Origin: Lytechinus pictus | Lineage: Eukaryota | Length of the DNA stretch: 64,000 bases | Direction of reading: 5' to 3' | Assembly (NCBI RefSeq): GCF_037042905.1 | Contig: NC_087250.1 | Location: 4,280,001-4,344,000 of the forward strand | In this document: positions 18,147-49,345 of the stretch, piece after piece | Numbering within the stretch: position 1 is the first letter of the stretch | Layout of the letters: the number at the start of each line of letters is the position of its first letter | Translations under genes and position numbers: made by a program | Notes under the pieces: model-generated | Seen by the model: only the letters and a program-made list of their open reading frames with translations | Databases searched by the model: none | What the model was told of the DNA's origin: nothing

Positions 18147-18384
18147 TTACATCATATATGAATGTTGCAGCCGAATGCCATCGTTGGGATCCAATGCACT
18201 GTCGCGTTTCTGTTCATATATCCTTGAGGAGTACTGAACCTCTCCGCCAGATGATGGCGACGAGGTTGATTCCCTGACATCCTGAATATCATGATAAAAA
18301 CCTGTGTCTTTATCGGTCGAACTTGAGGAACGGACCACATCCAAAGGTTGTGTCTTCTGGTCGCTGTTTGACTCTTTCATCATC
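18147..18384 (-). CDS. Gene A exon 7: cytoplasmic tail to stop
   Basis: Acceptor CTATAG|G, phase 2. Encodes MMKESNSDQKTQPLDVVRSSSSTDKDTGFYHDIQDV...VQYSSRIYEQKRDSALDPNDGIRLQHSYMM*. Paralogous to 47767-47968. Confidence 0.9.
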
Positions 18385-19074
18385 CTATAGGAAACAAATG
18401 ATACGAAAGAACAATGAAAATGAAAATAATAAGCAAGTACACTGGGTCTTCTGACCCATGTTAGAAACTTTCATCATTATGTACAACAGAACCAACGTTT
18501 AGAGAGAAGAATTAAAATGCAATAGACATGTCAGGACGAATGAAAGAACTTAAAGGGCGATGTTCAATATATTCTGATTAAGTTGCTAAAAAGATGAGTT
18601 GGTTTATTGATTTCTACTGATGGTGTTATTTCCCAATATTACGTTGGAAGAACTGTGGATTCAAACTTGTGAAATATATACCCTGATGGATCATGGCAAA
18701 CTTGATGCTGACGATGAAGCTGTATGGAACGCGAACGTTAATTTCTATCGGAGTTACGTACTCGGCGCCATCTTCACTATGAAGATGAGAACTTAGAATC
18801 ACCAGAGCTTGGACATTCGGAACATGCAATCTGCGTAAGCATCGTATAACAAAATGGGGAGCTGGCGCCGTATATGTACGTATGTCCACGGAATACGTGG
18901 ATCGAGCACCTCTTACTGAGGGAATCAACGTGCCGATTGACATTTGTCAAATCCATCAAGTTGATTCAATGATATTTTTTCCATATTGAAACCGATTCTT
19001 TAAACTGGTATCAATTCGAGGGGTAAAAGAAACGACGTATAGAGCAACATTTATTTAAAAAAAGGTAGCGAACA

Positions 19075-19290
19075 TTTAGACACCAGCCCGGAATCTATAT
19101 ATTTCCACACCAGAAAAGTATTAAACAATACCAGTTTCGTTTTGGTCTAGACACCAGATAGGTGTTTATACAACACCAATTAGTATTAAAACAGCATCGG
19201 TTTGATTCCCAACTGGTGTTGTTTTAATACTTCTCTGGTGTGGACATATATAGATTCCGGGCTGGTGTTAAATCAACGTCGGATTTTTTG
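19075..19290. mobile_element. ~215-bp palindromic MITE (second copy at 29455-29672)
   Basis: ACACCAGCCCGGAATCTAT / ATAGATTCCGGGCTGGTGT inverted arms in both copies. Confidence 0.75.
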
Positions 19291-19362
19291 CATTGTATGT
19301 ATTATGATCACCGGCAATATTTTTTTTCAGACATTATATCAGTAATAATTATTGGTACTTAC

Positions 19363-19453
19363 TTTCGCATTCGGAGGTTGTTCAGTACCAATGCAATGAC
19401 AATTACTACTAGAATAATGATGACAACGCCTTCGCCTATACCAACGGCAATAC
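19363..19453 (-). CDS. Gene A exon 6: transmembrane helix
   Basis: 91 nt, CAG| ... |GTAAGT. Encodes CIAVGIGEGVVIIILVVIVIALVLNNLRMRK. Same size and phase as gene B exon 6. Confidence 0.9.
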
Positions 19454-19983
19454 CTGTGGCAATGAAAAAGGACCACACATGTACAAATAAGTGGTACAAA
19501 CTTGTTTAGAATTCATTTGAATTTGGTATATCATTGTTGCTATCTTGTTTATCTTTTTTTAGATATGAATTCATACCTTCACTTATAAATTCAACATAAA
19601 CCTTTGTATCAATAATGTGTAATGTGGGTAACATAAAAAAAGAGACGTGTGGTACTTTGAAGCTAACGTATATATAGCAGGAGGTTTATTCACGCAAGAC
19701 AAGCGGCCGTGGTAGCAAGTTGAAGTGTGTCGACATCGATACTTTTATCATAACACCTTTCTCAAATTTGTTCAATGTCATTCGTTACTTCCGAAACAAA
19801 GAAGCTTGTCGTATTTCTTAGAAGACTTTTTTCTTAAATAAATATCAATCATCATATAAAATATAAAGACCAAATCGACGTCCTTTTTCGTGTCTTGGGA
19901 AATTATTTATATTAAGAAAATTGTCTATAAACACATATTAGATATTGCAAACATAATAAATGGTACAAATCGTATATATTTAC

Positions 19984-20184
19984 AAGAATTGGAACCAGAT
20001 TGTGGGAGTATTGATGACAAGGTTGTAGTCGTTGGTGAAGACGTCAAATCATTGTTTGGATTAATGGACATCTCTGAGGTTGGTTGATCGGTAATCACGG
20101 TCATTTCGGTGCTCATTTCTAGCACTTTCTCAGTTGATTTGATGATCCCAATAGTATGTGTGGTTTCCCTAGTTTCGGTGTCAA
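19984..20184 (-). CDS. Gene A exon 5: Ser/Thr-rich stalk
   Basis: 201 nt, phase 1-1, TAG| ... |GTAAAT. Encodes IDTETRETTHT...SSPTTTTLSSILPQSGSNS. Confidence 0.85.
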
Positions 20185-20596
20185 CTATAAAGTAACAAAT
20201 ACAAAATTAATCCTAGAAAGACTTTACTATTTTTGACGCCATAGAAGACAGGGGCCGATTAAGCCCCTACCCCCTCCCCCTTATTCTCTTATAGCCGTCG
20301 ACCGCGCGATCGCGACGGAAATCGACACGTGCGTTACACATGGCATAATCTACAAAACTGTAAGATCTTTTTTTTTCTCGAAATATTACATTACTAATTA
20401 ACTAATTAAACTAATTTACTAATTAGCTAATAAACTAATTCAGGCGTAAAATCAGTGAATTTTTCTAATTGAATAAGGCCTCCAAACTGTTTTTACGACA
20501 ATTATATATCACTATTTTTTCATATGAATTTTAATGTTTTAAATATCCTTTATATTCAAGTACAGTACCTTAACATTCACGAGCACCTATACTCAC

Positions 20597-20899
20597 TTCT
20601 AAAGACAGCTATGTATCCTTGCCCACCACAACTCTCAGTTGGGTCTCCTTGGCATGGTGATTGACATTCCCTATCCGATGCTACCCCATGCCTAGTGTAG
20701 TTATCACTGGCTCCACCACAGAAACATTCATTCCCATTATTAAATCCCGCGTATGCATAGTCAGATGAGTTTATCACGGTTATGGCGTTACAATACTGGA
20801 TGCAGTAGGAGATGGTCATAAGTGGCTCAGCAAGTAAACTATCACCAGTAAAAACTCGGTCACCCGGTTTGTCGACATAGCATCCAAGATAATTAACAC
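20597..20899 (-). CDS. Gene A exon 4: WSC domain
   Basis: 303 nt, phase 1-1. YLGCYVD...MTISYCIQYC...YAYAGFNNGNECFCG...CQSPCQGDPTESCGGQGYIAVF is the 8-Cys WSC pattern. Confidence 0.95.
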
Positions 20900-21571
20900 C
20901 TGCATAATAAACAACACGAATACAAAAATAATGTACATTTATAACTAAATAATATTTTCTTGATATCAGAGGTATCTTGTATTTTCCTTCTTTCTACACT
21001 TTCTTCTGGATAAAGTAAAACAAATATTCAAACCTACTGACATCTTTTCTTGTGTTATAATATCAGTATGTGCCATTATTTGCATTGATCGAGAAGCACA
21101 AGATTTCATCATTTCACAGATATCGAACTATTGCATTACTCAAATAATTGATTCCGGGACAACGTGACAACGTCAGGCAAATTTATCAGGTCAACAGTCA
21201 ATTATCAAGATTGTTCTACATGTAGAATTGCTTTTCACCACAGCAAAGCTGCTATCAATGCCAATGGCGAGACCCATAGAACCAAGCCTCCGAGCCCAGA
21301 TTGTAAAAGCTACGGTATTCATGGTATTGAGAACAAAACAAGTCGGCGTTCACCTTGAGACGTGAACATAACAAACAGGACAAGTTTAAGTTTTACACCA
21401 ACGGTTTATAAATCAGAATCATGAAATAAGCACTAGTGTAGAATGGCGTGGGTGTGTGAAGACCAATTGCATATCTTTAATAAAGCTGTTATGTCAGTGC
21501 AGATGTTCGAAAATTATTCATTAGAATGTCTTAGAAAATATATTATATGTCTTCTTTTGACTGTAGCCTAC

Positions 21572-21646
21572 CATGACACGAAGCTGCTCCAGTGATTGAA
21601 CAACTTTGTTGCTGAAACAGTTGGCATCCAGCTAAGTCGTCTTCTC
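21572..21646 (-). CDS. Gene A exon 3: C-terminal part of SRCR domain
   Basis: 75 nt, CCAG| ... |GTAGG. Encodes REDDLAGCQLFQQQSCSITGAASCH. Matches gene B exon 3. Confidence 0.9.
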
Positions 21647-22634
21647 CTGGAAATATGGGAAAAAAGCTCTTGAAAATGTAAATTCGAAGTATAGTAGTCT
21701 TTATGGGTGTGTATGTGTTCGGGGTTGATAAACTATCTTAAATAGGATCAATTTGAGAAACGATGACAATGTCAATTAAAAGGACCCTACTTGTAACTAC
21801 ACAATTTAACAAAATAATTCCACATTGATGCAATATGTGTCAGTGGTTCGATATTCGGCTTCCCACTCATGCCAACGGCAAAGTTTTAATCATTCCGTGT
21901 ACTCTTTATCCACGCATTGAATTAATGAAAATGGTAAATAGGACTTATTTGTCTCTGTTTTTTATCAAGAACCGGGCAAGGAAGAAAGACATCTTTATCA
22001 AATTGTTCCATGTTGTTATCATAAAAAAAATCCCTGATATAACAGATTAAATTTCGTGAATTTTAATCTAAGAGTACTTGCAATTTTATGCAAATAGAAT
22101 AGATAGATGGGCGTCGTCGTATTTTATATCAGTATTGACCAATAAAATCAAACCTATTCGTTTCGAAGGATCACATCAGACATACGGAGAAAAAAAAGTA
22201 CCACCGTGCACATTTGAAGGTACAATGCAACACTTGAAGAAATGTTTTAAAAGTAAAAATGAAGAAAATGTTTGAAGACTACAAAGAAGCATTTGTGGCT
22301 AGAGTGGATGTAACATAACATAACTTCCCCAAATTGGATCATTATTCAACTGACAATAATAATGGTCTCGTCGTGGGCAATAAAGATATATATATGGATG
22401 ATATTATTAAATTCTGTTAAAAGGAAAGTGTGTATACACGTACCTTGAGAAATGAATTTATCGAAGCATTATACCGGTTAAACAACGTGACAATATTTGT
22501 TGATACTATTGAAAAACAAATCTCTCAGTGAGTAAATCTGTATCCGGTGCTTGAAAGAAAATAGAAATGAAGATGCTGATTGTTCTATTTAAAATAATGT
22601 TTGAAAGTTTATGAATTCATCTTCTTATGCTTAC

Positions 22635-22853
22635 TTCCATTGCAAAATAGCCCTATCGTTGGTGGTGTTGGATCCTGTCCATACGGCGTGCTAAATATTG
22701 CTCTATTTGCCCCTGTATACCCTAACTGCTTACAAATGACAATGACGTCATTGATGTCAAGATGTATTCCACATGTTGTCTCCCATGTGCCATTATCTTG
22801 CATTATCTGCACTGTTCCTTTAACAGGAGATGGACCGCCAACAAGACGCACAT
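22635..22853 (-). CDS. Gene A exon 2: N-terminal part of SRCR domain
   Basis: 219 nt, phase 1-1. Encodes VRLVGGPSPVKGTVQIMQDNGTWETTCG...DVIVICKQLGY...YGQ...LFCNG. Confidence 0.95.
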
Positions 22854-23642
22854 CTGCAATTAAAATGGGCAAAGATATTCATTGCTATTGTTGGCATTGA
22901 TTTAAATATTCCTATGTTGCATTTAATTCTAATGTTACACACTTAAACAAATAGAAATGCAGATTCTCGAAAAAAAAGAGGGGCGATTCCAAGCAAAAGC
23001 GGTTATTTTCCAAATTCCTTTATTGGCTCCATTGAAAATTTGAAAATTGAAAAAAAAAACCATTGAAAATCACAGTTTTAATAAAAGTTCATATGGAAGT
23101 TCATACATTCGAAAGGGATCATAACTAGCAAAACAAAATATGTCGTAACGTATATCCTTAAAGAAGAATCCAAACAATACAAAAGTTTATATATAGGACA
23201 ACATCTAGGAAGCTATTATTTTATACGTCAGTGCAGTTAGAATGAGTTAACGGAGTCTCCCTAGATAAGCATCCGCTTTCCAGAAGTTTTCTGCAACCTT
23301 AGGAATATATTCAAAATACCCATCAAATCACAATAGGCAGATTAGAGGTCAAAAAATGGTGGACCGGAACAGCAACTCGTCTTAAGATTCGGACCTAGTC
23401 TTTTGTAAACTACGGCACTGCTGTTTTGATTCACCCATTTCGACGAAGGCTGCTTTGTTGTGAAGCGCTTTTGACAAAAGATTTTCTGCGCTGTAGAAGC
23501 GTCTGGGAAGTAATTGCCAAAATATCTTATTATAGGCTCACATAAACGTTGTATTATCAGAAAAATAAGATTTTTAGGTTAACTCTATGAGCACCAGAGA
23601 CTTATACATACACGGTGTTAATATTACTAAAAGTGCATTTAC

Positions 23643-23727
23643 CTGTTACGATACCATTGACGAAATAGTCTCCACAGTGAACGAGAAGTATTGTTAAGAG
23701 TATCCAGTCCACTCTGACAGTAGCCAT
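23643..23727 (-). CDS. Gene A exon 1: signal peptide of an SRCR-WSC type I membrane receptor (403 aa in total)
   Basis: ATG at 23727, MATVRVDWILLTILLVHCGDYFVNGIVT, donor G|GTAAAT. The seven exons sum to 1212 nt in one open frame. Confidence 0.9.
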
Positions 23728-26700
23728 GCTCCTTTGTATCAGCTCAAGGTTATCCTCAAAGAATGTCAGTAAACTGGCGAGACTTGTAGACAATAAAGCC
23801 TGGAAAAAAATAGCCCTATCATGATTGTCATATAAATCAAGCATCGTTTACACCTTTATGGATGAAAGGCAGATCATCCCGGATTGTCAATCCTAAGTCA
23901 TCATTGCACAGTCCGGCATGGTAAATTGCAAATTCGACTATCGTCAATTCGTCCACTCATCTAATGGTCCTACCTTTATTATTTTAGTATCATGCATTTC
24001 CGTCCATCAACATTTCGTCTAACAACCATTTGATCCAATAACAATTTGATCCAACCATCCTTTCGTTTAATCACCATTTCATCTCATTACCGCTTAGTCT
24101 ATTATCCATTTTGTTTCCATCCATTTCGCCCCAAAATCTCTTAGTCAATTAGACCAGACGGTATATGGACTAAATGGGTATTGGACCAACTGGTTATTAA
24201 ACAGAATAGTGTTTGAACACAAAGGCAATTAGATACCGTGGTTAGTGGACGTACTGATGGTAGACCAAATGATAGTAAACGATCTAATTATTGGAAGATT
24301 AGGCATTAAACTATTTGAAAAGTCGCCCATCCCGTGCATACCTGATTCTCACCCGACGCCATTTTAGATGTACCGGCATATCCGGGAGAAAAAAATTGAA
24401 CACGTTAAAATTTTATCCCGTACAACAGGGAAAATTTCAGATACCGCCCGCCTAATGACTTTTGGGAATCCTGTTTTGTTTTTCTTCAAATTGTTTTAAC
24501 TCACTCATGCCTGAATGAGGAATCGTCTGAGTTATACCAGATGAAAGAGGAGATAAGCTCAATTGTAGCTCTTTCATTTATTTTGATCTCTGATCGTCTA
24601 ATAGCATACGAGCCAGACCCATTTGCTCTGGTAACCGTTTGGTCTTCCACGTGGTATATTTCTTGGTCTTCCACTTGGTGTATGACTTGGTCGAATATAA
24701 TTGTTCGGTATAATTGCCGAATCGTCGAATAGTCAATGGTCTAATCGCCATTTCATCTAAACCCAAAATAAATATTTCCAGTCTGTTACAGGAATTGACC
24801 AAGTGGTGTTAAGATTAATTAGATATTAGGCCAAATAAAAATTAGACCAAAATAGAAACAACACGGGATGGTAAATAGTCATAATGACAATGAGACCAAA
24901 GGGTAAACTGGTTATAGACGAAATGGAATTAGACAATGTATACTTGTATAGGATAAGGCTAAACGGCCATTAGTCAAATTGGGTTTAGACCAACTGGCGA
25001 AAGTTACCTTACGGGAGGCTACTATAGAGAATAGCAGCAGAGCCCATGGAAAATGTTTTTTTTTTATCCACATGGTCTAACAACAATTGGACTTATTCTC
25101 CGTTTGTCCAATAATACATGAGCCTAACACATTTGGTCTACTAAGAATCTGATCTAATTTGCATCTGGTCTAACAAATACTTGATCTCGTTCTCATTTGG
25201 TCTAATGGCCAAATGGTTTAATTGCAATTGCAACACTACATGACCTATTTTTATTTTTTTTTGTTAAGTGTTGAGTAAAATTGGGTGACAACAAGCCTAT
25301 GTGTGCCCCTCTTCCACAAATTGTCGCCAAAATGAAGAGACGATTTGTGCAGGGGTAACAATTTGTGGTGTCAAATTTTGCACAAATTGTAGCGGGACGA
25401 TAATTTGGAGTGCAACACATGTTGAGTGACGTTTATTCTCTAGGAGCCTCCCTGTTTAGGTCAACCCGGTTCGAGTAGGTAATATGTTTAAAATGTTGAA
25501 AGAAAGAAATAAGAATTAGTTACCTTCTTACAGTAGTTTAGTTACCTTATTACAGTGTTTCTTATAATTCCTCGTTCCAACATTCAATAGTTTGTTATGC
25601 ATGACCATATCAGCATTTCAATGTACGTTCTATTGTCGCTCAAACATCACTTTCAAATTTGATGGCTACTACCTATAAATGCAGCTTAATTAGGAGAAAC
25701 TATGTAAACCAACGAAGCCTCTTCCTAAACTTGATGAAGACTGCATAAGCAGTGCGTACTTAGGTTCTCATAACTTTCTATTTGATAGTTAAACGCGAAT
25801 TAGAAACTTGTATTAGTACGTAGACATACAGACCCGGCGTCAAGAATGAGTCTGCGAACAAGGAAAAAAAAAAAAATACCCAAAGTACATCACATAAATA
25901 TATCTATGCATATTATTGCGAAACAGTGCACTATTTATACTGTTCAGTAAAGCCTGATTTACCACGTACCGCTTACGATTTTAATGGAGGCCTGCCCATG
26001 GGGAACATGAGGAGAGAAACAAGTAAACAGACACGGATCTCGACCCGGCGCTGGCGTCACGCTATTCAAGTCAGGGGACGAAACCACCGACACCAGTATC
26101 TAACTGTAGGAAAGTAATGAAAGCCCAATTAACTGCTTGTGCGTACAAAGGATCATTTGTAAACAGGATTCCTTAAACTATTTGACTATGTTACGATACT
26201 GCAACAAATAACAATGAAAATTTAGTGTTAAATTTGATTTCCTTTTCTTTTTTTACAGGGAATATTTGGATCCCTAAACAAAACATAAATAAATATTGAT
26301 CTTACATCTTTTGAAATGTCAGTTCTGATTATAATCCAACGTTAAATCCAGATTAAATCCAAATTGGCTGGTGAAAATTTCTTAAATTAAAGTTCACAAT
26401 GATGGCGGTGGTGAAATTGCTGTTGAAGCACGATGAATAACAAGAGTCACTGTAACGAGCTGAAAATGTCTGTGAAGACGATGTTGATGATAATTAACAG
26501 TCAATTTCAGCAATCTATGGGTTGAAAAGCGTTCATTAAAACAGGTTGATGATCTCGATGAGTACTGAGGATTCCTCTCTCAGAGTAGCTGCAAACAGTT
26601 CATTGATGGCGTGCAAATAATTCCAAAGAAGATAAATGTTGTATTTCGATTAGAAATAAACTATGCTCTGACATAAAGTCTGGTTTGAAACTCGAGTTCT

Positions 26701-33475: not shown

Positions 33476-34620
33476 AAAACTCTTTTGTAAGGGGTAAGAC
33501 ATCATTCCAGGGCGTATGGAAAAAAAACACCAACAGCAAAGAAGACAGGGAAATAAATCAATACACTGTGAATACACCAAAAACAAGTATTAAAACCCGA
33601 ACTTCCTATTCAGAAAAAAACCGGCTACACACACCCGCACACCCTCTCTCTCTCACACACACACCCACATCATTTGACGTGTATATTTTCAGATGTACAT
33701 GATTATGACAGATAAAGGAATGCTTTTTTTTGCTGTAAAGTACATTATTTCAGAATGTGGGCAGTATTCACATTCCTTCTGTAGAAAAATAACGACTACA
33801 AATTATAAATGATACAGAACCAAACGCTGCAATAACGAAGTAGCTTCATTTCCAAAAATGAAACGATCCGTGTGAGAAAAAAATGAATATGTATGTGTGT
33901 GTGTGTGTGGCAAAGGTAATGAATAGTCATAGATGACGTAGAGTTACACGAGTTGTAAAGCTTTTTCGCACCTAGGCCTTCCTCAGTGTTTATGTTCTAA
34001 GTATAACAAATAAATCAAATTATACAATTAGCAACAGAACAGAAGGGAGATAATCGAGAATAGCCTAAAAATAAAGCGAAACCAAAACAAAGGTAATACA
34101 TATATGGTAATCATACGGAAGTGTGGGTTAACAAAACATCATATTCAACATAAATAATTATTAATAAAAACTAACTAAGGAAATAAATTACAAGGTTTGC
34201 TTCGACTTTTGTCACGTATACTCCTGTCTAAAATGCGTTATATACCCTGATACCGCGAAGTTTGATCATGGAGACCAAAATTGCGCCTGATATCATGGAC
34301 CCATTAGGCTGATATGCACCGCTTGAACGCCTAATACTCTAAGAAAACCGGGGTTCTTCGAGGACTATCTGCTTATCCTGTATTTGGATCCCTAAGCTTT
34401 TTCTTGCACACGTAAAGAAACATTTCTGGCACTCTTTGAAACTCTTCAGACCACGGGACAAATTGGTTCCCATTCGCACTATGTCTAAGAGTGAATAGAT
34501 TATCATAATGGTTTATATACCAATCACGTTGTATTCCTTCCAAGCTGTATGGTGTCCAAGTCTCTCTCATCAATTTACAGATATTCTTTGAGGACAACCT
34601 TGAGCAGATGAGAAAGAAGC

Positions 34621-34705
34621 ATGGCTACTGTCAAGTTGGACTGGATATTCTTAATCTTACTTCTGGTTCACTGTGGAGACAACTTCGTCAATGGTATCAT
34701 AACAT
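34621..34705 (+). CDS. Gene B exon 1: signal peptide of an SRCR-WSC type I membrane receptor (353 aa with exon 7a)
   Basis: 85 nt, MATVKLDWIFLILLLVHCGDNFVNGIIT, donor T|GTAAAT. About 45 nt of 5' UTR is also conserved with gene A. Confidence 0.9.
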
Positions 34706-36107
34706 GTAAATGCACTTTTATAACGGTCACATAAATACAAAAATTACATTCATTTGCGTTCGACATTACTCTTTGAATATTTTTTTTTAATATGTATTGG
34801 GAAGCATTTACTGTAGTAATTTCTTCCCATTTGTTTACCCCCCCCCCTAATTTTGAAGCAGTACGCTTTTCTTACGATCATGATTTAAAAATAGATGAGC
34901 ACAAAAATCAGACTTGAAATGTTGAATTTTGAACAGTTTAATCAAAGTTTTTTTCAAACCATGTTCCTGTTTCTGTTTATGGTAACTCACGTAGAAACTT
35001 GGCAGGACGGCGTTTTGCTGTTAAACACCAAGCTGGTATATAACCAATTACCAATGAAACATTTTGCGTCTAGGTTAATCGGTCATAGTGGCTGACCTAA
35101 TAGACGGTAAATATTAATCTCGTGCCTTTTTATCAAAGTGGAGATTTTGGCAGAGTGAGGATTCAAACTCATAACCTTGCGATTGCGAGTCCAATGCTGT
35201 AACCACTTGTCCACACGACCCATATGACGTGACACGGTATAAGTGATGTAGGCTAATTTCAACTGTTATCACGTGAAGAAAAATGGTTTCAATTTTTCAC
35301 CTTAAGATATGACCAATGTCCCTGTTAGGTACCTGAAGGGTGCAATTTCGCAATTTTCTGAAATGCGCAGGATTGTATTATCGAACTTTTAACGCGTCAG
35401 AACAACCGCCCCCCCCCCCATCTCCCCAGGACCATGAGAACGATTTTTTTACAGGGCGTGCTGGTTTAATTTGACAAGCAACTAAATGGTCTCGCTACAA
35501 AATGAAGATGGTTTTGTTCCAGGACAAGTCAAACACAAAATAATTAAAAAATAACAATTTTCATAAAAAGTTTCAGTCGTCATGGTCGTATTGAGTTAAT
35601 GTTGGCCATTTACCATATTATTGTTGGATTTCGTTGGGGTACATTCTATGGAAAATAAACGCAGCATTCCCAAGAAAAATAAAAGAGGTGCACCTTCTGC
35701 ACCCCCAGCATCCCCGCTTCCCCCCCCCAAAAAAAAAAAAATAATGATATAAAAATTTACAGTAATTAGAGATTCATTAATTCATTAATTGAATTAATTA
35801 AATAAATGCATAAAATATAAATTGACAAAAAATAAATAAATAAAACAAATACAACTAAATAATGCAATCATATTCAAACAGGAGAAGCGAATCATTTTAT
35901 ACTTGTTTGTACAAGAAGCAGACAAGCGATCAAATAACAATTTACAATTGATAACCAGACTTAACATTGATTGGGGACCAACTTTGACTCGCAATTGTTT
36001 GCAAGTTTATTATTTTGTTTTACATTACTGTGTAAAGTTAAAGGTATATACTACCCAGGAAAATCAAGGAAAAGCTTATAATAACTGTTTGGCTAATTTA
36101 TCACCAG

Positions 36108-36326
36108 ATGTACGTCTTGTTGGTGGTCCAACTCTGAATAAAGGAACAATACAGGTGATGCAAGACGGTGGCCCATGGGAAACAACATGTGGAATAAATA
36201 TTGATATCGATGACGTCATTGTCATTTGTAAGCAGTTGGGGTATACAGGCGCAAATAGAGCAATACAAAGCACGCCGTATGGACAGGATTCAACGTCACC
36301 TAAGATTGTGCTGAGTTGTAATGGTG
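36108..36326 (+). CDS. Gene B exon 2: N-terminal part of SRCR domain
   Basis: 219 nt, CAG| ... |GTAAGC. Encodes VRLVGGPTLNKGTIQVMQDGGPWETTCG...ICKQLGY...LSCNG. Confidence 0.95.
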
Positions 36327-36928: not shown

Positions 36929-37003
36929 GAGAAGACAGCCTCGCTGAGTGTCAATTGTTCGAGCAACAAGGTTGTTCATCGGCTGGAGCAGCCTCATGTC
37001 ATG
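36929..37003 (+). CDS. Gene B exon 3: C-terminal part of SRCR domain
   Basis: 75 nt, TAG| ... |GTAGG. Encodes GEDSLAECQLFEQQGCSSAGAASCH. Confidence 0.9.
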
Positions 37004-38407: not shown

Positions 38408-38519
38408 GTGGTTTTGGGGTGGTTGGTCACATACAAGATTTCGATATGGTGAAATCCGTGTTCTTGATACCAGATCATCTCAACTCGACCATGTCAACAT
38501 GATGAGATCCGGAAAAATC

Positions 38520-41500
38520 CCGACTTTTCGCTGGAGAACGCGAACGCATATTTACGACGGTAGTTGACTTTGGAAGAGAATTTTGGGCCCGTCGTAAAAG
38601 ACTGTCCTGCAATGCAAGTTGTGTGACATGATTTGTTTGCCTTTTGCATCCACAACGGAAACATTCAATCTGCGGTTCGTGTGCAAACTAGTATGGTAAC
38701 AGCGACATATCCGATTTAAAACGAGCTCCCAGAGCCACATTTGGTTCCTACCAGAGCTAATGAAAGCCACCCGGGGGTGCCACTTCCATTGAAAAGTTTC
38801 CAGGCGCGACCACGCGTAAACGGGGATTTTCCTTTCAAGAGTGGGCACGTTACGTATGTAACGAAATTGGGTGTTTTTCGAAAGGTAAGGTGGTATCCAC
38901 TCGTCAATGGAAGCAGCCCCCCGGGAATTGAAATCCAATCCCTATTTCGTGGGAAAGTAATACATAATAGCGAGTTTTCGCAAAACTCGGGGACGCATCA
39001 TTAGGGTCCGGTAACAAAAAAGTTCATGATTAATCATACATTTAATTTTTAAGATTGATTCTACATTAGAGTCAATAGAATCAAATATAGAAAACTGTTC
39101 TACAATTATTTCTAAGCTTTGTGTTACAGGCCCTATAGAACTGCTTATCGTGTGCAAAATTCTTTCATGCGACACCATGCACGCCTTTCCAAGATGCGAT
39201 ATTAAATCCTGCATGTAAGACTGGTCATCAGCGTATGCCCACCCGAGGCCTGCGGCGTGCCTCTACTCTGGCGGCTGGCTGGAGATATTCGAAATGCTAG
39301 GCCTACATGGTAGATTATGACATGGATAAGAAAGTGTTTTTCAAACAAATCGACTACATTTATTATTGAGTGAGGAAAAACTTACTGAATTAATGCTCGG
39401 TTGACTCTTGCACGCATTGTGATGCCCGCATTGCGCCGCATTGATGCGTACCAGTGCGGGACACTTTATGGCACGACTTGGCTACATTAGTTCACGCAAC
39501 ATCCCGACACGTTCATGAAATGTTTGCGCATAGTTCGCGCATAGTTCACGCAGTGTTCACGCACTGTCCCGACGTGCTTCCAGCAAATATTCTCGACACC
39601 CTATCCTTTGAAGTATCTAGCACAAATTTAAATATCCAACGTTCTGGTGTTGACACCCCTTCGTTTGTTGATTAGGACGACTCACACTGATCACGTGGTC
39701 TGCACTCACAATTTTGCGCATATCATTCGCGAACTATGCGTGAAGTATGCTTGACATATGCGCAAAATATCCGCGACCCTGTCGTGAACTAGTCGTCAAC
39801 TGCGTGCCTACTATTCTTTGCGCCACGAAATTTCTATTTCGATGCCACGCAGTGGTACGCAGTGGCACAACTAGGTTGCGCATAGTTCACGAATTTGAAA
39901 TGCGTGCCAAAATTTTCAACATGTTGAAAATTTTGGCACGCATTTCACGCAATGGCACGCACTGCCACGCACCTATCCGCAATTAAGCTGGCACGCATAG
40001 TTCGCACACTGGCCCGCATGAGTGCGTGGCCATGCGCAAACTATGCGGGAACCACAATGCGTGCAAGTGTCAACCGAGCTCTAGGCTTAGATGTAGATCA
40101 TTACAGTCCATCGAATCGATATTGCATCTAATGTGGATTATTGGTGGATCACTGGCAATTGATTCCATGGGTATCATCTCTCCAACCGAAACCATTTCGC
40201 ATGCGTTGATATGTTCACAGCACATGCAATAGGCCTATCCGTCTGAAAACCATCCGAATTTGCGTTTTTTATTTTATTTTGCTCTCCCCTCCTACACAAA
40301 CGATAAGCAATCTAGCACACAATGTGATGGGCATTCTTATTTTCTTTCCCCCGAAATTGGGGATTTGATTCAAATTCCCGGGGGGATCGACCACTTCCAT
40401 TGACAAGTTGATACCAGACGCGACCATGGGAATTCGAAAACGCCCCAATCAAGGGAAGCATGTATTTTCCAGATTATGAAAATGCATCCCTTAACAAGTA
40501 TTGGAAATTTGACCGAAAATACGTAGCTTTCCTAACAAAATATATCCTTTTTTCAGTTTTTTAAAATATGTTTTGTGACACCCTTATAACATTACATATT
40601 CGGAACGTGCCCAGTCTTGAAAAGGAAATCTTTTTTTACACGTGGTCGCGCCTGATTGATATCCACTCGTCAATGGAAGCGGCCTCCCGGGCGGCCCCTT
40701 GAGCTCTGGGAGGAACCGAATGTGGCTCTGGAGGCTCGTCCTAAATCGAATATATCGCAGTACTTAGCAACCAGAATTTTGCACAAAAAAGGCAGATTGA
40801 ATGTTTTTGTCGCGGATGCGAAACGTAAACAAGTTTTCATATCATACAACTTGCATTGCAGGACAGTGTTTTGCGACGGTCCCAAAAGTCTCTTCCAAAA
40901 TCGATATAACGTCGTAAAGTCCATCTGCGTTGCGCACAGCGAAAAGTGGGGATGCCCGCCATGCACACGGGCATAATGTCCATCACATTGTCTGCGAGAT
41001 GGCTTGCCGTTTGTGTAGGAGGAGCCAGCAAAATAAAAAAAACGACACATCCGCATCGTTTTTGGACAGATTTGCTGTGCATGCAGATAACGCATGCGAA
41101 ATGGTTTAGCTGGAGAGGTGAATGTGACCAACGGATTAGCCAGCGTTCCATCAATAATCAACGTTAGATATGCCATATCGATTCGATGGATTGTAATGAT
41201 ATATACCAAAGCCTTCATTCAGTTAGTTTTTCCTCACTTAATATGTACTCGATTAGTTTAAAATACCACTCTCTTATCCATGTCATAATACACCATGTAA
41301 GCCCATGGTTTCTAATGAAATCTCAAACATAGCGGCGCGGCCGGAGTCCTGGCCATGAGCAGTCGTGCGCACAAGAAAGCTCTCACAATTTGCGAATGGC
41401 ATGTTTGGTGTCGCATGAAATAATTTTGCACAGGAAACGCAGGTCTAGAGCCCGTAGCACAAAGCTTAACAATGATTGTAGAACAGTTTTCTACGATTGA

Positions 41501-41590
41501 TTCCATTGGATATAATGTACAATCAATCGTAGAAATCGGGCGATTTGTGTTACGAGATCATATGCCGCGTCCCCAAAGTGTGCGAAAAGT
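38520..41590. repeat. Rearranged copies of the composite module forming interlocking inverted repeats in gene B intron 3
   Basis: 38520-38880 is inverted relative to 40600-40950. 38960-40350 is inverted relative to 40970-41590. Homologous to 9640-11745. Confidence 0.8.
39395..40079. mobile_element. GC-rich non-autonomous element (Harbinger-like) inserted in the composite module
   Basis: TIR GCTCGGTTGACTCTTGCACGCATTGTG / CACAATGCGTGCAAGTGTCAACCGAGC. Absent from the homologous position of the 11.4-kb copy. Confidence 0.8.
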
Positions 41591-42074
41591 GGCATTGTCA
41601 CCATGGAGCCGTTTCATAAAGCTGTTCGTAAGTTAAGAGCGACTTTCAGAACGACTGGTGAACCTTTCTTATGCGCTAAACCATCGCCGATTCAATAAAC
41701 TATATACTACAAGAAAGGATCACCAGTCGTTATTAAAATTGCTCTTAACTTACGAACAGCTTTATGAAACACCCATCAGATCATCCCAACTATAAATGAT
41801 GTTGATATCGTGAGATCGGCATTGTAAACGGGATGCAGAGTCACAGCGGCCAAATTGGGCTTATACCAACCAAACTTTCAACGTTATTTCCAATTGCTCA
41901 ACATATCGGTCTGTTTGGAGTCGGTTTCGATGGTGTGTGAGGGTGTGTGTGTGGGTTTGCATGCTTGTTTTGGGTGTCTGTATGTGAGGGTGAAAGTATG
42001 TGTGTGTTTATTTGTGTATAGCGAAAGCCACAACATATAGAGTAGACCTACATAACCATGATCATGGTCCCATA

Positions 42075-42956: not shown

Positions 42957-42999
42957 TGATGTCATGTTTCTTTTTTGGTGTTTTATTCTTGTTATACAG

Positions 43000-43293
43000 G
43001 TGATAATTATCGTGGATGCCATGGCGACCTGCCAGCTGATCGAGTTCTTCGTGATGGTATTTTATTTACTGACCCGAATATGACTATCCCCCTCTGCATC
43101 CAGTATTGTAACGCTGTAACTTCATCTTACTATGTGTACGCGGGCGTTGAAAATGCGGATGAATGTTTCTGTGGGGAATTCAGTGATTGCTTCATTAGGC
43201 ATGGGATAGCATCAGACAGGGACTGCCAAATCCCATGCCGTGGAGACTCCACTGAGAGCTGTGGAGGATTAGGATACATATCTGTCTTTGCCA
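43000..43293 (+). CDS. Gene B exon 4: WSC domain
   Basis: 294 nt, phase 1-1, CAG| ... |GTGAGT. Encodes YRGCHGD...MTIPLCIQYC...YVYAGVENADECFCG...CQIPCRGDSTESCGGLGYISVF. Confidence 0.95.
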
Positions 43294-44149
43294 GTGAGTA
43301 TTAATATGTAATAGCGGGTTTCCGCACAGTGACGCACTACGGATTAAAAAAAAAACACATTAATATATTAAAAATCCCCGTGAAATGACAAAGACATAGC
43401 TGGGAGGACTTTGTCGAAAATTGTTGAATCAGAAATGCAATTTAGTCCTAGGTTTCGGAGCTGACAAAAAAAATGCAGATCTGTAGTTTGCTCCTGAACA
43501 AAATTAGAAATTAAATTCACCAGTTTTCGACAAAAACTTCTTGGATGTCTTTGTTATGAAGGGAATTTTACATTTTCTTTGTCATTGAACCCGTGTACAT
43601 CTCGGATTAAGAGTCCTTAATCATAATATGTATACGAATTATATTTGAACGTTGGACACTTGAAACTCTGCAACGCTGAAAAATCCTTTGAAAATGCAAG
43701 TCAAATCATAATGGAGAGCTACACCCGACAAAGGAAATTTAATTAGTGGTGTCGAAAATCTGTTTATCTGACGGTCAATCGGATCGGGGTCGCCCTGGCA
43801 ACTAACCCGTTTATGTGGTCTACTGATTAAGGCACCGACGCGGCGTTCAAAGCTGGGGGCCCGGGTCCGATTCCCGGCAGACATTTTTTTCGGCATTACC
43901 AATTTTCCAAAGGGCAGATAGCTCCGGTGAACCTTGATTTAAGCTACGCCTATCATTGTTCTCTTCATTCATTTCTTTCACAATATATTTGAATGCAAGA
44001 GTTGCCAAAGCTGTTGTACATGTATAATTTCTAACATTTATTTATATATCCATTTTTTTTTAAGTAAAGTCATTCATTACTTTAGAATAGTTTGTTTAAA
44101 ACACTATCCTGTACAGTATGTGTGGCATAATTTGTTTAATCATAATATG

Positions 44150-44380
44150 CATCATTTACATAGCACTTAATACAAATGTTTCTAAGCGCTACATACTATT
44201 ACCCCGGCTTTAGCACGGCTATCCTGATCGGGTGCATCAAGCATTCAAGGAATTCCTTCCTACCGGGTACCCATTTACTACACCTGGGTGGAGAATGGCA
44301 AATGTAGATAAACGCCTAGCAAAATGACGCTGGTACTGTGGTGGGATTTGAACCACGGATTTTGTGCCACAACACCTCTA
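44150..44380 (-). mobile_element. tRNA-derived SINE
   Basis: B-box GGTTCAAATCC on the minus strand. Body homologous to 3070-3182. Confidence 0.65.
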
Positions 44381-44432
44381 CAAGTGCATTATGTTTAAGG
44401 GCATTATATACTTCTTACTTGCAACCATGTAG

Positions 44433-44528
44433 TTAACACCGACAAGAGTAGGGGGCGGACCATACCTTCTACTGCACCAACGACGACAACCTTGTCATCA
44501 GCCGTACTGCAACCTCGTCACCATTTAT
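44433..44528 (+). CDS. Gene B exon 5: short Ser/Thr stalk
   Basis: 96 nt, phase 1-1, TAG| ... |GTAAAT. Encodes INTDKSRGRTIPSTAPTTTTLSSAVLQPRHHL and shares PTTTTLSS with gene A exon 5. Confidence 0.85.
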
Positions 44529-45042
44529 GTAAATATGATAGTGAATAATTGAAATTGTAATAATTACGTACGGGGGGCCTTATAAATTTGTTTTTTTAAT
44601 GTTTCCTCCACTTTTCCGTTTTAAGCACTTCGTTTATATTTCGTAATGATTTAGAATGTTTATTATTTACATTTCATATTCGTCATTTGTTATGTTCAAC
44701 ATAATTATTTTATTACATCAAAGGTTTGCAACGACACAAACTTGTGGAAATAAAACCTCCATGAAATGAAAAAAAAAAATGTCTATACTAGTAAGCGATT
44801 TGCATATTTAATGTGGGAAATAAAGAATTTTACTTGACTTGTTTAAAAAAAAGAAAATCTTCGAAGAAACACAAGATTAATTTTTCTGAATGATAGAGAG
44901 AAAAGGAAATGCCAAAGACAATGAAAAATTGCGAGAAAGGCGATGCTGACTTTTAAGGTGAAATTATCAATTCATTTTTTCAAACACCGATTAAACAAAC
45001 GAGTGAAATGATGATGCACGTGTTCTCTTTTAATCGGTGCAG

Positions 45043-45133
45043 GTGTTGGTGTTGGAGTTGGTGAAGGTGTTATCATAATGTTTCTTATAGTGATTATCAT
45101 TGTATTGGTACTATACAACCTCAGAATGCGAAA
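45043..45133 (+). CDS. Gene B exon 6: transmembrane helix
   Basis: 91 nt, CAG| ... |GTAAGT. Encodes CVGVGVGEGVIIMFLIVIIIVLVLYNLRMRK. Confidence 0.9.
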
Positions 45134-45922
45134 GTAAGTTTCATGAATTATTTTCGATATAATGTTTGACCAAAGATATTTTTAGGGGTGTTGCGTTTGC
45201 TATTCACCAAAGGATAGTATGCTAAAAAAATTTAATTTATCCAAAATCATCTTTTTTTTCTTGTATTGTAAAATATTGTCTTCTTCACACGCCACCGCTG
45301 CTTAATAATATGCACTTTCTGATTCCTTGAGATACGGAAGTAACTTAGATATGATCAAGGTTCCTCTAAGGAGATACGTATTCAACACTTAAATATATTA
45401 TTGTTTCAGTGAACTCAATGTCCAATATTGAATGGTATGTACATGTTCCTTTCATGTCTCCTAGCTTCTTATAACTAAATGCTTTTCCTGTACTTTAAAA
45501 GGTCAAGTCCACCCGACAAAAATATCGATTTGAATAAATAAAAAAAAAAATCCAACTAGCCTAACGTTGAAAATGTCATCAAAATCGGAAGTTATGACAT
45601 TTAAAGTTTCGCTTTGATATGCACAACACATCGATATGCAAATGAGATAGTCGATGATGTCCCTCACTATTTATTTTGTTTTATTGCTTGAATTAGACAA
45701 TATTTTATTTTTTACAGATTTTACAATAGGGACCAACTTGACTAAACCATATATCAAATAATGCTAATTCCACATGTTCATGGAGGAATTTTATCGTTGT
45801 TTCACTTGACGATGAGGAGAAAATTAGAATATTTCATATTTCATATAATAAAATACAAAAGAAACAGTGAGTGGATGACATCATCGGTCTCCTCATTAGC
45901 ATACAGACCAGGATGTGCATAT

Positions 45923-46717
45923 GAAGAGCTTGATTCCAAAAGGAGCTAAATCCACTTTTGATCAAAATGGACTTTTTTATACAAATATATGTATCTTAGA
46001 CGTGGGAATCAAATGCAACATATCGCATTTTAAAAAAAATTTGGAAAGGTTGGTAAAAATTAATTGCAAATTTGAGTTTTGTTCCAAAAGGAGCTAAATC
46101 AAAAACAGTTTTGTTCCAAAGGAGATAAATCCACTATGCGGTTATCTAAAATTTGTTATTTTTCCTATTTTAAAGAAAGTTATACATTCATTTTTTAGGT
46201 ACTTGTTGTGGATACAAGTTTACACCATCAGTGCAAATTTTGTTGTAAATGACATAATTTTACAATTTTTATGAATGATTTTGGATTAAGCTCTTTTTGG
46301 AAATATATATCGAAAAGTAACCGTCCTTAGAAAAGATGACAAAATATATTTTTTTTTTTCATTTTATAATTTTCAATGGATAAACATCATAAAAGATGTG
46401 AAATGAACTCTGCTAGCAATGTTTTTATGTTTCGTGTTCAATTTCCAATATCAATCATATTGGCAAAATTGACATTTTACTAGGGTTTTGTTCCAAAAGG
46501 AGCTAAATCCATGAAAAATAACATTTCAAAAATTCTTTGAAAATTTAGTATGAATGCTAGAATTTTGAAATCATGATTTCATTAATCTAAAATGTTAGTA
46601 CTATCATCTATATCAAAATAAAACAGCAGTGGCTAAAGGAAATTGGTGAATAAAAAAATCTTGATTTACAGAAAAATACCAAAAGTGGATTTAGCTCCTT
46701 TTGGAACAAAACTCTTC
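45923..46717. mobile_element. 795-bp GAAGAG...CTCTTC element with ATAT TSD (Sola1-like, second family), nested in an older MITE (~45497-46740)
   Basis: TIR GAAGAGCTTGATTCCAAAAGGAGCTAAATCCACTTTTG / CAAAAGTGGATTTAGCTCCTTTTGGAACAAAACTCTTC with ATAT on both sides. Confidence 0.85.
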
Positions 46718-47766
46718 ATATACTGTTTTTTTTTATGAAATGGCTAGAATTGAGAGCAATGTGAGGTTCTGTGAAAACGTTGGTGCAAAAGTTAGGGGGA
46801 AATGACGTGTTCAACAGAGATTGAAGCTAGTCAGTTAATATAAAAATGCTAGAAACTCACACAAATTTAACAGAGGGGATATGATTTTGCTGAAATTTTT
46901 AGGGGAAAACTCTGATCAAACAAAAAACCTAAACAACAAAGTAGTTTTCACGCATGTACATTAAAACACTAAAAGGTTGGTTTTGCACCCTTCGCCTACG
47001 ATGGGCCATAACTCTGTACCCCGTGACAATTGTGATGCAAGGAATGTGTCAAAGTAAACTTGATGAGTAATTCGATCATGTAGAATAAAAATCACAAGAA
47101 TAATTTGTGCATTTTTATATAGCTGACCTTTGAACTTCGGTTGCATTTTCTTTAGAAACATCCTGTATAGTATTCAGAACGTGTGAGGCGTGACTAAGGT
47201 CGGACGCTTTCATGTTCTATATAGCTTTTACAACCTGATCACGTTTGTAATTACATCTATCCAGGGTATATATTTAACATGCTGGAAATTATTATTTTTT
47301 TAATTTATTTAACATTATCAATCACGTCTATATTTATATTGTCTGCTTTAAAATTTATTAGTTGTTAAACTGTGTATTTATCTTCATTTTAATGTTCTAT
47401 CAATTATTAGTATTACAGACCAGTTCTGTGTACATGTAACTTGGTCTGGGAGGGAGACCATCGGGTCACATTCATCAAGTTAGCTTTTCCCATACCCCGG
47501 CAGCTAAGTTACATATACCCATCTACGGCTATGCTTTTATTCATATTTTGTTGAAATTTTATTGAATATTGTAACTGCCGAATTGATAATGAATAAATGA
47601 ATAAATAAATAAAAAAAAACATGCTGGAATGATGTTGGGAAATAACGCAATCAATGATAAATAATAAACCGTGCTCATTATCGTCACAACTGAATCAGAA
47701 TGCACAGCAACTTCTCTTTGAAGTGCTTCCCATTCTATTCTAACTTTCCATTATGACTCTCTCTAG

Positions 47767-47968
47767 GATGATGGAAGATCTTAACAAGGATCAGAAGACA
47801 CAAATTTTGTTTCAGTCTCCCAATTCGACAGACAAAGACACGGGGTTTTACCATGATGTTCAGGATGTCAGGAAATTAGCCTCATCGTCATCGCCCGATG
47901 AACAGAGACGTGACAGTGTCTTAGATCCCAACGTTCGCAGTCACCTGCCAAATTCATACATGACGTAA
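47767..47968 (+). CDS. Gene B exon 7a: cytoplasmic tail to stop
   Basis: Acceptor CTCTAG|G, phase 2. Encodes MMEDLNKDQKTQILFQSPNSTDKDTGFYHDVQDVRKLASSSSPDEQRRDSVLDPNVRSHLPNSYMT*. Confidence 0.9.
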
Positions 47969-47971
47969 CTG

Positions 47972-48075
47972 AAATAATGATAATGATAATAATAATGATG
48001 CTGATAAAAATAATGATAATAATAATAATGATAATGATAATAGTAATAATAATAATTATAATGATGATGACAATG
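47972..48075. repeat. (AAT/GAT)n microsatellite immediately after the exon 7a stop
   Basis: Run of AAT/GAT trinucleotides. Confidence 0.9.
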
Positions 48076-48782
48076 AATAACAGTTTTGGGGGCGTTTTCT
48101 AAAAGAGATAAAACATCTCTTTATGTGATATACAGACATGACAGAGTAAAACATTAATAATTCTAATATAATTCTGAAAAGGGCTTGGTCCAACTGCACT
48201 TACGGATGCATAAAGGATGTAAAACGGAAACGAATCTTGCCATCCGTTGGAAAACGTTATGTATCCGAGAGCAGATCATCCTGAGATTCGGAACGGACAA
48301 AAAATTGCAAATGTGTCGTTTGTCCAGAGTCCATGCATGATGACATTGATGTTTTGATTCACCGATTTTCGATAAAGGCTGTTTTGTCATTAAAGGGCTT
48401 TTCACAAAAGATTCTCTCCGTAAAGCCCGTCTCACACTATGCGATTCGTTGCGAATCGAATTTGGAATCAATTGTGATAACATTTGATATGGATATTCCA
48501 ACTAATAAAATATTACGGATCAGAGTTCAGAATAGTGGTAGGAGTACTGAAATCGAAATTCAGTCCAGTTGGAGCCTTCCTGAATGAATAAAAACAAATT
48601 CAATTCCAAATCGTACTGGCGTCATCACCGGCTGTGACTTGAAGCCAATTTGGACTTTACTCCGACTCCGACCATAGGGCTTGCCGCAAAGTAAAAATAT
48701 GATTTTAGTTTTCCAAATAACGTATTTTTAATAAAGTTGGTTGATCAGTTGTCTCGCAAAGCGGTTGAAACTGTAAAAGAGT

Positions 48783-48823
48783 TCACGACGTTTCGTTGGC
48801 TGCTGCTCAACTTTGTCAAGTGA
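48783..48823 (-). ncRNA. Minimal type I hammerhead ribozyme (antisense arm of the palindrome)
   Basis: Exact reverse complement of 48887-48927. Confidence 0.7.
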
Positions 48824-48886
48824 TGGAGACTTCGGTGCGAGGGCGAAGGTTATAGCGAGTATGCGGACGTCGCACCGAAGTCTCCA

Positions 48887-48927
48887 TCACTTGACAAAGT
48901 TGAGCAGCAGCCAACGAAACGTCGTGA
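48887..48927 (+). ncRNA. Minimal type I hammerhead ribozyme, Penelope-type, U3-A8 core variant
   Basis: UCAC-UUGACAA-A-GUUG(agcagcagc)CAAC-GAAAC-GUC-GUGA: stem I UCAC/GUGA, stem II GUUG/CAAC, palindromic stem III ACGU, GUC cleavage triplet ending at 48923. Confidence 0.75.
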
Positions 48928-49179
48928 ACTCTCCTACAGTTTCAACCGCTTTGCGAGACAACTGAACAACCAACTCTATTGAAATCTCCGCGATGACGAA
49001 CATCTTCAGAACATAATTTTACTTCCTGGAACTTTCATATTTAATGAAAAATGCGATTTCTTGAAAAATCGCGTCGCATCGGATCGCATAGTGTAAGACA
49101 GGCTTTAGATAATGCGTCTGTGAAGTGATTGCGACTACTTTCTAATTTTATTTTCTTTGCTAAACTTTCTTCTCTTCAG

Positions 49180-49345
49180 GTTGACGAAGGATTCTAACAA
49201 TGATGAGATGACACAATATATGGATTTGGTCCAGTCCTCTAGTTCGACCGACAAACATACATCGTTGTTCATTGATATCGTAAATGCAAGCGAACAAGCC
49301 TCACCGGACGACGAGGTTGTCTACTCCTCGAAGATATATAAATAA
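49180..49345 (+). CDS. Gene B candidate alternative terminal exon 7b (or an exon relic)
   Basis: Strong polypyrimidine tract and CAG|G in the same phase as 7a. Encodes LTKDSNNDEMTQYMDLVQSSSSTDKHTSLFIDIVNASEQASPDDEVVYSSKIYK*. Homology to the gene A tail continues after the stop (KPDSALGPYD). Confidence 0.6.

Follow-up and report, generated by a model that had tools for sequence, protein, structure and literature searches.

The 64,000-nucleotide (nt) stretch of the Lytechinus pictus genome analysed here (contig C6:4280001-4344000; hereafter the window) carries two genes, A on the minus strand and B on the plus strand, which stand head to head as inverted, intact paralogues and encode type I membrane proteins. 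Each protein has a single scavenger-receptor (SRCR) domain, a single WSC domain of putative sugar-binding type, a stalk, a transmembrane (TM) helix and a cytoplasmic tail bearing tyrosine motifs. A corresponds to LOC129263551 and B to LOC129263041; both are labelled "uncharacterized" in RefSeq, and no function is attached to either record. Both are real genes, and the chief outcome here is a corrected and fuller annotation of them. As for what they do, we lean, with somewhat better than even confidence, towards functional inverted paralogues encoding type I SRCR-WSC membrane glycoproteins that serve as scavenger-type binding and uptake/signalling receptors. A putative role in binding glycans or microbes is plausible. 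They are not an activating/inhibitory pair in the vertebrate sense, and the word "pair" describes their position only.

When the two halves of the locus were compared by blastn, 16 high-scoring segment pairs were returned, including seven colinear blocks that correspond to seven exons, and the tail exon of A matched two places in B. The blocks were read in three frames, the splice sites fixed and the joins then checked by script. Gene A has seven coding exons of 85, 219, 75, 303, 201, 91 and 238 nt, all flanked by AG and GT, with intron phases 1, 1, 1, 1, 1 and 2; joined, they give residues 32-434 of RefSeq protein P0003 (434 aa). Gene B has eight, of 85, 219, 75, 294, 96, 91, 198 and 166 nt, with GT-AG introns throughout, the same six phases and a further phase 2 after exon 7a; this eight-exon join is identical to RefSeq protein P0018 (407 aa).

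Gene A:
24342..24362, minus: upstream exon found in RefSeq model P0003, coding portion; ATG at 24362, ATG...CAG/GTATGC, spliced to an acceptor at about 23800
23643..23727, minus: exon 1, 85 nt from the signal-peptide ATG; extended 5' to about 23799 in RefSeq
22635..22853, minus: exon 2, first part of the SRCR domain, 219 nt, phase 1-1, Pfam SRCR 6.6e-10, AG/GT flanks
21572..21646, minus: exon 3, 75 nt, completing the SRCR domain with its last three cysteines
20597..20899, minus: exon 4, WSC domain, 303 nt, 8 Cys, Pfam WSC 1.2e-16, profile positions 1-82 of 82
19984..20184, minus: exon 5, Ser/Thr/Pro-rich stalk, 201 nt, 67 aa
19363..19453, minus: exon 6, membrane-proximal Cys, TM helix (GIGEG) and RMRK stop-transfer sequence, 91 nt
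18147..18384, minus: exon 7, cytoplasmic tail of type T1, 238 nt including TAA; GFYHDI, QYSSRIYEQK and a C-terminal HSYMM
17994..18125, minus: partial tandem duplicate of the 3' end of the tail exon, in the presumed 3' untranslated region (UTR); 83% protein identity over residues 49-78, one TAG

Gene B:
34621..34705, plus: exon 1, signal peptide, 85 nt; transcribed 5'UTR to at least 34498 (contig of run X1)
36108..36326, plus: exon 2, first part of the SRCR domain, 219 nt, Pfam SRCR 9.2e-9
36929..37003, plus: exon 3, second part of the SRCR domain, 75 nt
43000..43293, plus: exon 4, WSC domain, 294 nt, 9 Cys (the extra one in SDCF), Pfam WSC 1.4e-14; an X1 contig ends the exon at 43293
44433..44528, plus: exon 5, short stalk, 96 nt, 32 aa; joined on both sides in an X1 contig
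45043..45133, plus: exon 6, Cys and TM helix (GVGEG), 91 nt
47767..47964, plus: exon 7a, first tail module, 198 nt; GFYHDV and NSYM kept, YSSxIY block absent
49180..49345, plus: exon 7b, duplicated second tail module, 166 nt including TAA; FYHDI with Y changed to F, a new TQYMDL, VVYSSKIYK kept

Much of the original prediction, made from the sequence without database searches, stood up to this reconstruction. It had described two intact paralogues on opposite strands, and both joins reproduce a RefSeq protein sequence; it had put the start codons about 10.9 kb apart, and 10,894 nt lie between 23727 (A, minus) and 34621 (B, plus). The shared intron phases (1, 1, 1, 1, 1, 2) were right, as were 13 of the 14 exon sizes, and the signal peptide, SRCR, WSC, stalk, TM helix and tyrosine-bearing tail are present in both proteins, as is a difference between them in ligand domain (WSC identity 62%), stalk (67 versus 32 residues) and tail layout. 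It is also the case, as had been said, that neither of these duplicated type I SRCR+WSC receptor-like genes has a named orthologue. The 3' end of B is where the account failed: seven exons per gene holds for A and not for B, the last B exon given as 202 nt really has 198, and the 202-nt version spans 47767-47968, the claimed end at 49345 being the stop of a different exon. The observation of the gene pair is therefore partly confirmed.

The eighth exon of B depends on a splice donor that overlaps a stop codon: the GTAACT following 7a contains an in-frame TAA at 47966-47968, and in P0018 exon 7a is spliced to 7b. The same joint is found in a 370-nt contig of public run X1 (labelled only 'RNA?'), which connects 47834-47964 to 49180-49417. 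Another X1 contig runs 43173-43293, 44433-44528 and 45043-45131, giving the joints between exons 4 and 5 and exons 5 and 6 exactly, and a 338-nt contig is made up of pieces 34498-34701 and 36105-36237, whose lengths fit the exon 1-2 junction of 34705 with 36108. At least four of the seven B junctions are thus supported among the matches listed, and because the exon joints are exact we take these contigs to be cDNA; no retrocopy was found among the 38 WSC matches in the L. pictus assembly (811.7 Mb, 368 contigs), on which all our own-genome searches ran. Transcription of A is taken from its RefSeq model. Raw total-RNA runs X4-X6, about 6% of each of which was sampled, gave near-zero depth on the B exons and are uninformative beyond those samples. 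In A, a GTAACT (G/TAA) overlaps the stop of the tail exon too (18145-18155) and no intact downstream exon follows it; in B the stop-overlapping GTAACT (47960-47970) serves as the 5' splice site to the duplicated tail exon. A B transcript left unspliced at this donor would encode a 353-aa form with SYMT at its end.

At its 5' end the RefSeq model of A adds a 31-residue N-terminal extension, MASGENQ plus 24 in-frame residues before the signal peptide, which would bury that signal peptide. Because B and the L. variegatus orthologue P0007 both begin at the signal-peptide Met, the extension in P0003 is probably not a functional start, and the upstream coding exon is probably 5'UTR or an alternative start. 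A further model of A, P0002 (nr, 485 aa, labelled LOC129263551), comes from a different sequence with several residue differences; it retains intron sequence, ends in a transposon-like C-terminus (PF28514) and looks like a misprediction.

Pfam places four of the eight exon open reading frames (ORFs) searched above its curated cut-off (two SRCR, two WSC), and a profile check of the spliced proteins puts both domains above the gathering cut-off in both. For SRCR (PF00530) the full-length scores are 46.9 bits in P0003 and 49.3 in P0018 against a cut-off of 26.1; for WSC (PF01822) they are 58.5 and 52.0 against 27.8, with profile positions 1-82 of 82 covered. The SRCR domain is split over two exons (219 + 75 nt) in A and B alike, and a multi-exon SRCR domain is a trait of group A. 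It contains six cysteines, in A at positions 56, 69, 99, 109, 117 and 125, and in alignment with the group B proteins PIT54 and CD163 the places of C1 and C4 are taken by a Lys (vKg) and a Tyr (lgYtg), respectively. Six cysteines without C1 and C4 therefore make this a group A SRCR pattern, by the group definitions given in passages of a survey of SRCR genes (PMC10855680). Sequence matches include scavenger receptor A (SR-A, 6.8e-11), LOXL2 (1.5e-14) and Mac-2BP (3.9e-8), as well as SCARA5 and MARCO. A and B thus share the six-Cys SRCR without C1 and C4 with the group A proteins SR-AI, MARCO, SCARA5, Mac-2BP and LOXL2. The latter are type II collagenous trimers, secreted proteins or enzymes; in A and B the SRCR domain is instead part of a type I protein that also has WSC, a mucin-like stalk and tyrosine motifs in its tail.

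The WSC domain has its eight canonical cysteines in A, and the same eight plus one extra in B; its closest solved structure by sequence is the WSC domain of Kremen-1 (3.4e-12). Hydrophobic N-terminal and TM segments are present in both proteins, the Ser/Thr/Pro fraction of the stalk is 0.45 in A and 0.44 in B, and in each a Cys arises at the exon 5/6 junction, just before the TM helix. The TM segments themselves are alike, with a conserved GxGEG motif that contains a Glu; a putative role of this Glu in partner association is possible. We set aside two Pfam matches that fell short of the threshold, taking them for effects of composition or of the TM segment: ECSCR on the stalk and TM region of A, with 21.7 bits where 27 are required, and eIF3h_C on exon 7b. 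In the ESM Atlas no large cluster combined SRCR and WSC, and the best feature score, 0.84, was below the level of trust.

The cytoplasmic tails have 78 residues in A and 120 in B, with tyrosines at positions 355, 376, 381 and 401 of A and 315, 351, 366, 401 and 406 of B. Exons 7a and 7b have lost complementary motifs, and B uses both in series; similarity of 7b to the A tail runs on past the 7b stop, which comes earlier than that of A. Because A also holds a broken partial tandem copy of its tail (17994-18125), this region is evidently prone to duplication. A regular-expression scan of eight motif types over seven tails covered, among others, the immunoreceptor tyrosine-based inhibition motif (ITIM, [SIVL]xYxx[IVL]) and switch motif (ITSM, TxYxx[VI]). 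YHDI was the only scanned motif in the A tail. The spliced B tail holds a loose match to the ITAM, the tyrosine-based activation motif of immunoreceptors, namely YMTL-x11-YMDL (Y351, Y366), which is absent from A and whose first YxxL straddles the 7a-7b joint. Its spacer of 11 lies inside the broad range of 6-12 and outside the classical 6-8, and among 200000 composition-matched shuffles of the B tail a loose ITAM arose in 1886 (0.94%) and one of classical 6-8 spacing in 860. We treat this motif as no more than a lead, because it was noticed only after the fact, has a spacer longer than the classical one and comes from a protein for which no orthologue was found in the protein collection. KDTGFYHDI[QE]DV and YSSxIY are found again in paralogues and in other species. 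When the tail of A, which we call T1, was used in an exhaustive phmmer search, only 7 representatives came up among 1.84 billion proteins, and two of the more distant of these retain GFYHDI and HYSSNIY. Other relatives carry a longer tail, T2, with LYHDM and TYYSS where T1 has FYHDI and YSSQIY, and also ending in Y-x-M; with these elements standing at matching places, T2 is not unrelated to T1.

A and B are not an isolated pair and belong to a family of at least 12 genes in the L. pictus genome. Ten of the 38 own-genome matches to the WSC exon of A lie in one array at C17:25.115-25.290 Mb, which consists of ten tandem SRCR+WSC genes (g1-g10), all on the minus strand, with WSC identities to A of 56-73% (B, 64%). 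The first SRCR exon of A recovered the same ten genes at 61-83%, with B at 76%, among the best 150 of 667 candidates. As in A and B, their SRCR domain occupies two exons and their WSC domain one; the WSC cysteines are conserved in all 12 paralogues, bar local changes in g5. The array differs from the A/B locus in that its genes are all tandem on one strand and have two types of tail. We fetched it as 190 kb (C17:25110001-25300000) and mapped the family proteins onto it. This placed T1 tails in g2, g3, g7 and g9, and T2-like long tails with LYA[KM]PDK repeats in g1, g4, g5, g6 and g8. Of these, g1 matches T2 strongly, at 83% over 237 aa, and g4, g5, g6 and g8 less well, at 29-48%; no tail was found by this mapping for g10. 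Along the array the types are interleaved (g1 T2, g2-g3 T1, g4-g6 weaker T2, g7 T1, g8 weaker T2, g9 T1), which therefore points to repeated exchange of tails inside it. The Glu of GxGEG, at the outer end of the TM helix, is kept in all T1-tail members seen; T2 members have Gly there (GVAGG).

More distant loci with SRCR followed by WSC lie on C17 and C4, and the databases hold relatives from L. pictus, L. variegatus and Strongylocentrotus purpuratus (for example P0008, P0010-P0017 and P0019) under such automatic names as kremen protein 1-like, kremen protein 2-like, neurotrypsin-like, LOXL3-like and WSCD2-like. Some of their models are short and stop once the WSC domain is complete, some lack the stalk or WSC, and some have doubled SRCR-WSC units, a range of layouts that fits the symmetric phase 1-1 exons. 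The family has so far been seen only in sea urchins. Closest to A is L. variegatus LOC121417479 (P0007, 391 aa), of the same architecture and 82% identical overall (79% in WSC, 86% in the tail); it differs from A in having a shorter stalk, and some of its SRCR and signal-peptide residues match B instead.

The history of the two genes was approached with a tree of SRCR exon 2 plus WSC (23 rows, 168 columns, four outgroup loci). A, B, g1 and two L. variegatus proteins (P0007 and P0008) form a clade with support 91/92, within which A pairs with P0007 (82/79). B falls outside the group of A with P0007 and g1 with P0008 (81/74), on a long branch of 0.43, and the sisterhood of A and B is therefore not proven; an approximately unbiased test gave no rejection of a clade in which A and B join P0007 (p 0.234). 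Synonymous divergence (dS) between A and B is 0.39-0.41 over exon 2 and WSC, versus 0.45-0.64 for A and g1 and 0.47-0.56 for B and g1, and over all segments it is 0.39-0.45 for A and B. For A and B alone, similarity extends to every exon, the 5'UTR and the flanks of introns; between A and g1 it is confined to exons 2-4. Most likely, then, A and B arose from an old local inverted duplication (dS of about 0.4) that predates the split of the two Lytechinus species, with tails exchanged elsewhere in the family.

Both genes have since been under constraint, as follows from the ratios of nonsynonymous to synonymous divergence (dN/dS) between A and B, which by the NG86 method are 0.36 for SRCR, 0.60 for WSC, 0.96 for the stalk, 0.27 for the TM segment, 0.26 for tail module 7a and 0.32 for 7b. 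Every part but the stalk is under purifying selection. Identity between the two proteins is 65% overall and 76% in SRCR, and the WSC domain has diversified faster than the SRCR domain: among the 12 paralogues, 24 of 105 WSC columns have five or more residue states, as do 7 of 72 columns in SRCR exon 2, and the variable WSC columns are concentrated in two loops.

How might such proteins work? On the reading that we favour, the SRCR+WSC head, held above the membrane by a stalk that is presumably O-glycosylated, would bind a carbohydrate-rich ligand, be it a microbial surface, matrix or a self glycan. Binding could then be relayed by the tyrosine motifs of the tail, either through YxxPhi-type endocytic sorting (YHDI/V) or through phosphotyrosine docking. 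After the duplication, B would have shortened its stalk, changed its WSC surface and doubled its tail exon, the two copies of which may have lost complementary motifs before being spliced in series as they now are. Several points weigh against this view. Neither a ligand nor a cell type nor a response to challenge is known for any family member. YxxPhi is a weak and common motif, and in neither tail did the scan detect a strict ITIM or ITSM. Transcription of A is attested by the RefSeq model only; the protein collection yielded no orthologue of B, its single match being B itself; and the long-branched position of B in the tree sits uneasily with a simple story of sister genes. The AlphaFold2 model of P0003 (14-row alignment; mean pLDDT 37.7, pTM 0.23) was too poor to check the folds.

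Could the two proteins instead have a non-immune role, in cell-matrix or cell-cell adhesion or in a Kremen-like modulation of developmental signalling? We find this doubtful. Kremen-1 and Kremen-2, the vertebrate Dickkopf co-receptors, are likewise type I membrane proteins with one WSC domain, the solved structure that best matches the WSC of our proteins by sequence is that of Kremen-1, and automatic naming has made paralogues 'kremen protein 1-like' or 'kremen protein 2-like'. Taken as a whole, dN/dS stays below 1, and our literature search turned up no immune expression data on A or B. The Kremen layout, however, is Kringle-WSC-CUB, and Pfam finds neither Kringle nor CUB in A and B, which have SRCR instead; SRCR and WSC are the only domains above its cut-off. 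Moreover, recognition families typically show such a lineage-specific tandem expansion with a fast-evolving WSC domain and variable tails, which would be unusual among conserved co-receptors of development, and the orthologue of A is only 82% identical between congeneric species.

The interpretation first attached to this locus was that A and B form a paired innate-immune receptor unit, in which related ectodomains see the same or related ligands and the tails send opposite or complementary signals. In vertebrate paired receptors (KIR, LILR, PIR, SIRP and similar) one member carries an ITIM or ITSM, its partner couples a short tail to a basic TM residue, and the ectodomains are almost identical. 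A and B do resemble them as clustered paralogues with related ectodomains and differing cytoplasmic parts: they lie next to each other in head-to-head orientation, their WSC domains, stalk lengths and tail layouts differ, and the YMTL-x11-YMDL of B (seen in 1886 of 200000 shuffles) has no counterpart in A. Syk-family homologues are, in addition, among those listed for S. purpuratus and L. variegatus in passages of PMC13344425. Yet of the hallmarks of such receptors that we checked only adjacency is found here. The vertebrate proteins are built on Ig or C-type lectin domains, A and B on SRCR and WSC domains that are 76% and 62% identical, far from near-identity; there is no ITIM member, and no short-tailed one with a basic residue in its TM segment. 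The paired-receptor reading is not supported, because A and B share one type of TM segment and tail and neither has an ITIM; the ITAM-like spacing of 11 is outside 6-8 and was picked out post hoc among eight motif types and seven tails, with no B orthologue found, and the family counts at least 12 members. What survives of the interpretation is partial support, namely adjacent and divergent paralogues; as an account of function it is unlikely.

Just as improbable, in our estimation, is a bolder extension in which the SRCR-WSC family would be a counterpart of the vertebrate multigene immunoreceptors, a single glycan-reading head being combined with exon-shuffled tails (T1, T2 with YxxP repeats, or none). 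Here the duplicated tail exon of B and its stop-overlapping donor would have created a new ITAM-like YMTL-x11-YMDL that could recruit the urchin Syk-family kinase, so that A and B would signal differently on related ligands. Least credible of all is that B is a decaying duplicate drifting under relaxed constraint towards pseudogenisation, for its frame is intact over eight exons with canonical splice sites and spliced transcripts, dN/dS is 0.26-0.36 in SRCR, TM and both tail modules, and all eight canonical WSC and six SRCR cysteines are kept, against which can be set the longest end branch of the ingroup (0.43), the highest dN/dS of the structured domains (WSC, 0.60), an extra Cys, a shortened stalk, the loss of YSSxIY from 7a and of the FYHDI Tyr from 7b with its earlier stop, and the lack of a B orthologue among the proteins searched.

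Sea urchins are a reference for innate immunity without antibodies, and their several hundred SRCR genes are mostly known as counts. According to passages of the S. purpuratus SRCR survey (PMC10855680, Int J Mol Sci 2024;25:1515), WSC is among the five commonest partner domains (36 genes, 8.96%) and 70% of the genes lie in tandem clusters; these passages give domain counts, and do not describe a subfamily with signal peptide, SRCR, WSC, stalk, TM helix and tail, the tails, or the A/B locus. In the parts seen of a paper on L. pictus larval immunity (PMC11688612), which deals with srcr142, WSC is not mentioned, and our literature search found no paper on the SRCR+WSC architecture in sea urchins or echinoderms, or on these gene identifiers. 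The A/B locus and the C17 cluster define a compact subfamily with one SRCR, one WSC, symmetric phase-1 exons and swappable tails, and one that is tractable, gene knockouts being feasible in L. pictus. If it is true that these proteins bind microbial glycans, they would provide a concrete case of recognition and signalling in urchins diversified by exon shuffling.

Beyond the two genes, neither the 10.9-kb spacer nor the rest of the window holds another recognisable gene or a third family member, judging from Pfam searches of its 103 other ORFs of at least 75 aa. Three of these gave matches, all transposon-type (zf-RVT twice, GIY-YIG once). The remnants lie at 14519-14869, 62019-62291 and 63539-64000, all on the minus strand; the zf-RVT matches score 21.7 and 27.2 bits against a cut-off of 27.5, and the GIY-YIG nuclease ORF, which may derive from a Penelope-like element, runs off the end of the window. 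ARAGORN and Rfam found no gene in 17000-51000. Inside B, intron 3 is inflated to about 6 kb by repeats, which also explain the rise of its GC content to 0.43-0.44:

38500..41600, no strand assigned: nested dispersed repeats in intron 3 of B; 4096 first-look candidates and 188 matches in an own-genome DNA search, with internal inverted copies

Intron 4 of B (43341-44674) attracts strand-biased pile-ups of total-RNA reads, with a mean bin depth of up to about 360; most of these reads match partly, with joints of the 'goes back 306' kind and loose ends whose consensus looks tRNA-like, and the pile-up is probably due to a repeat resembling a short interspersed nuclear element that is expressed from other copies. 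Lastly, the segment at 12001-14000 is very AT-rich, with a GC content of 0.215 as against 0.32-0.44 in the rest of the window.

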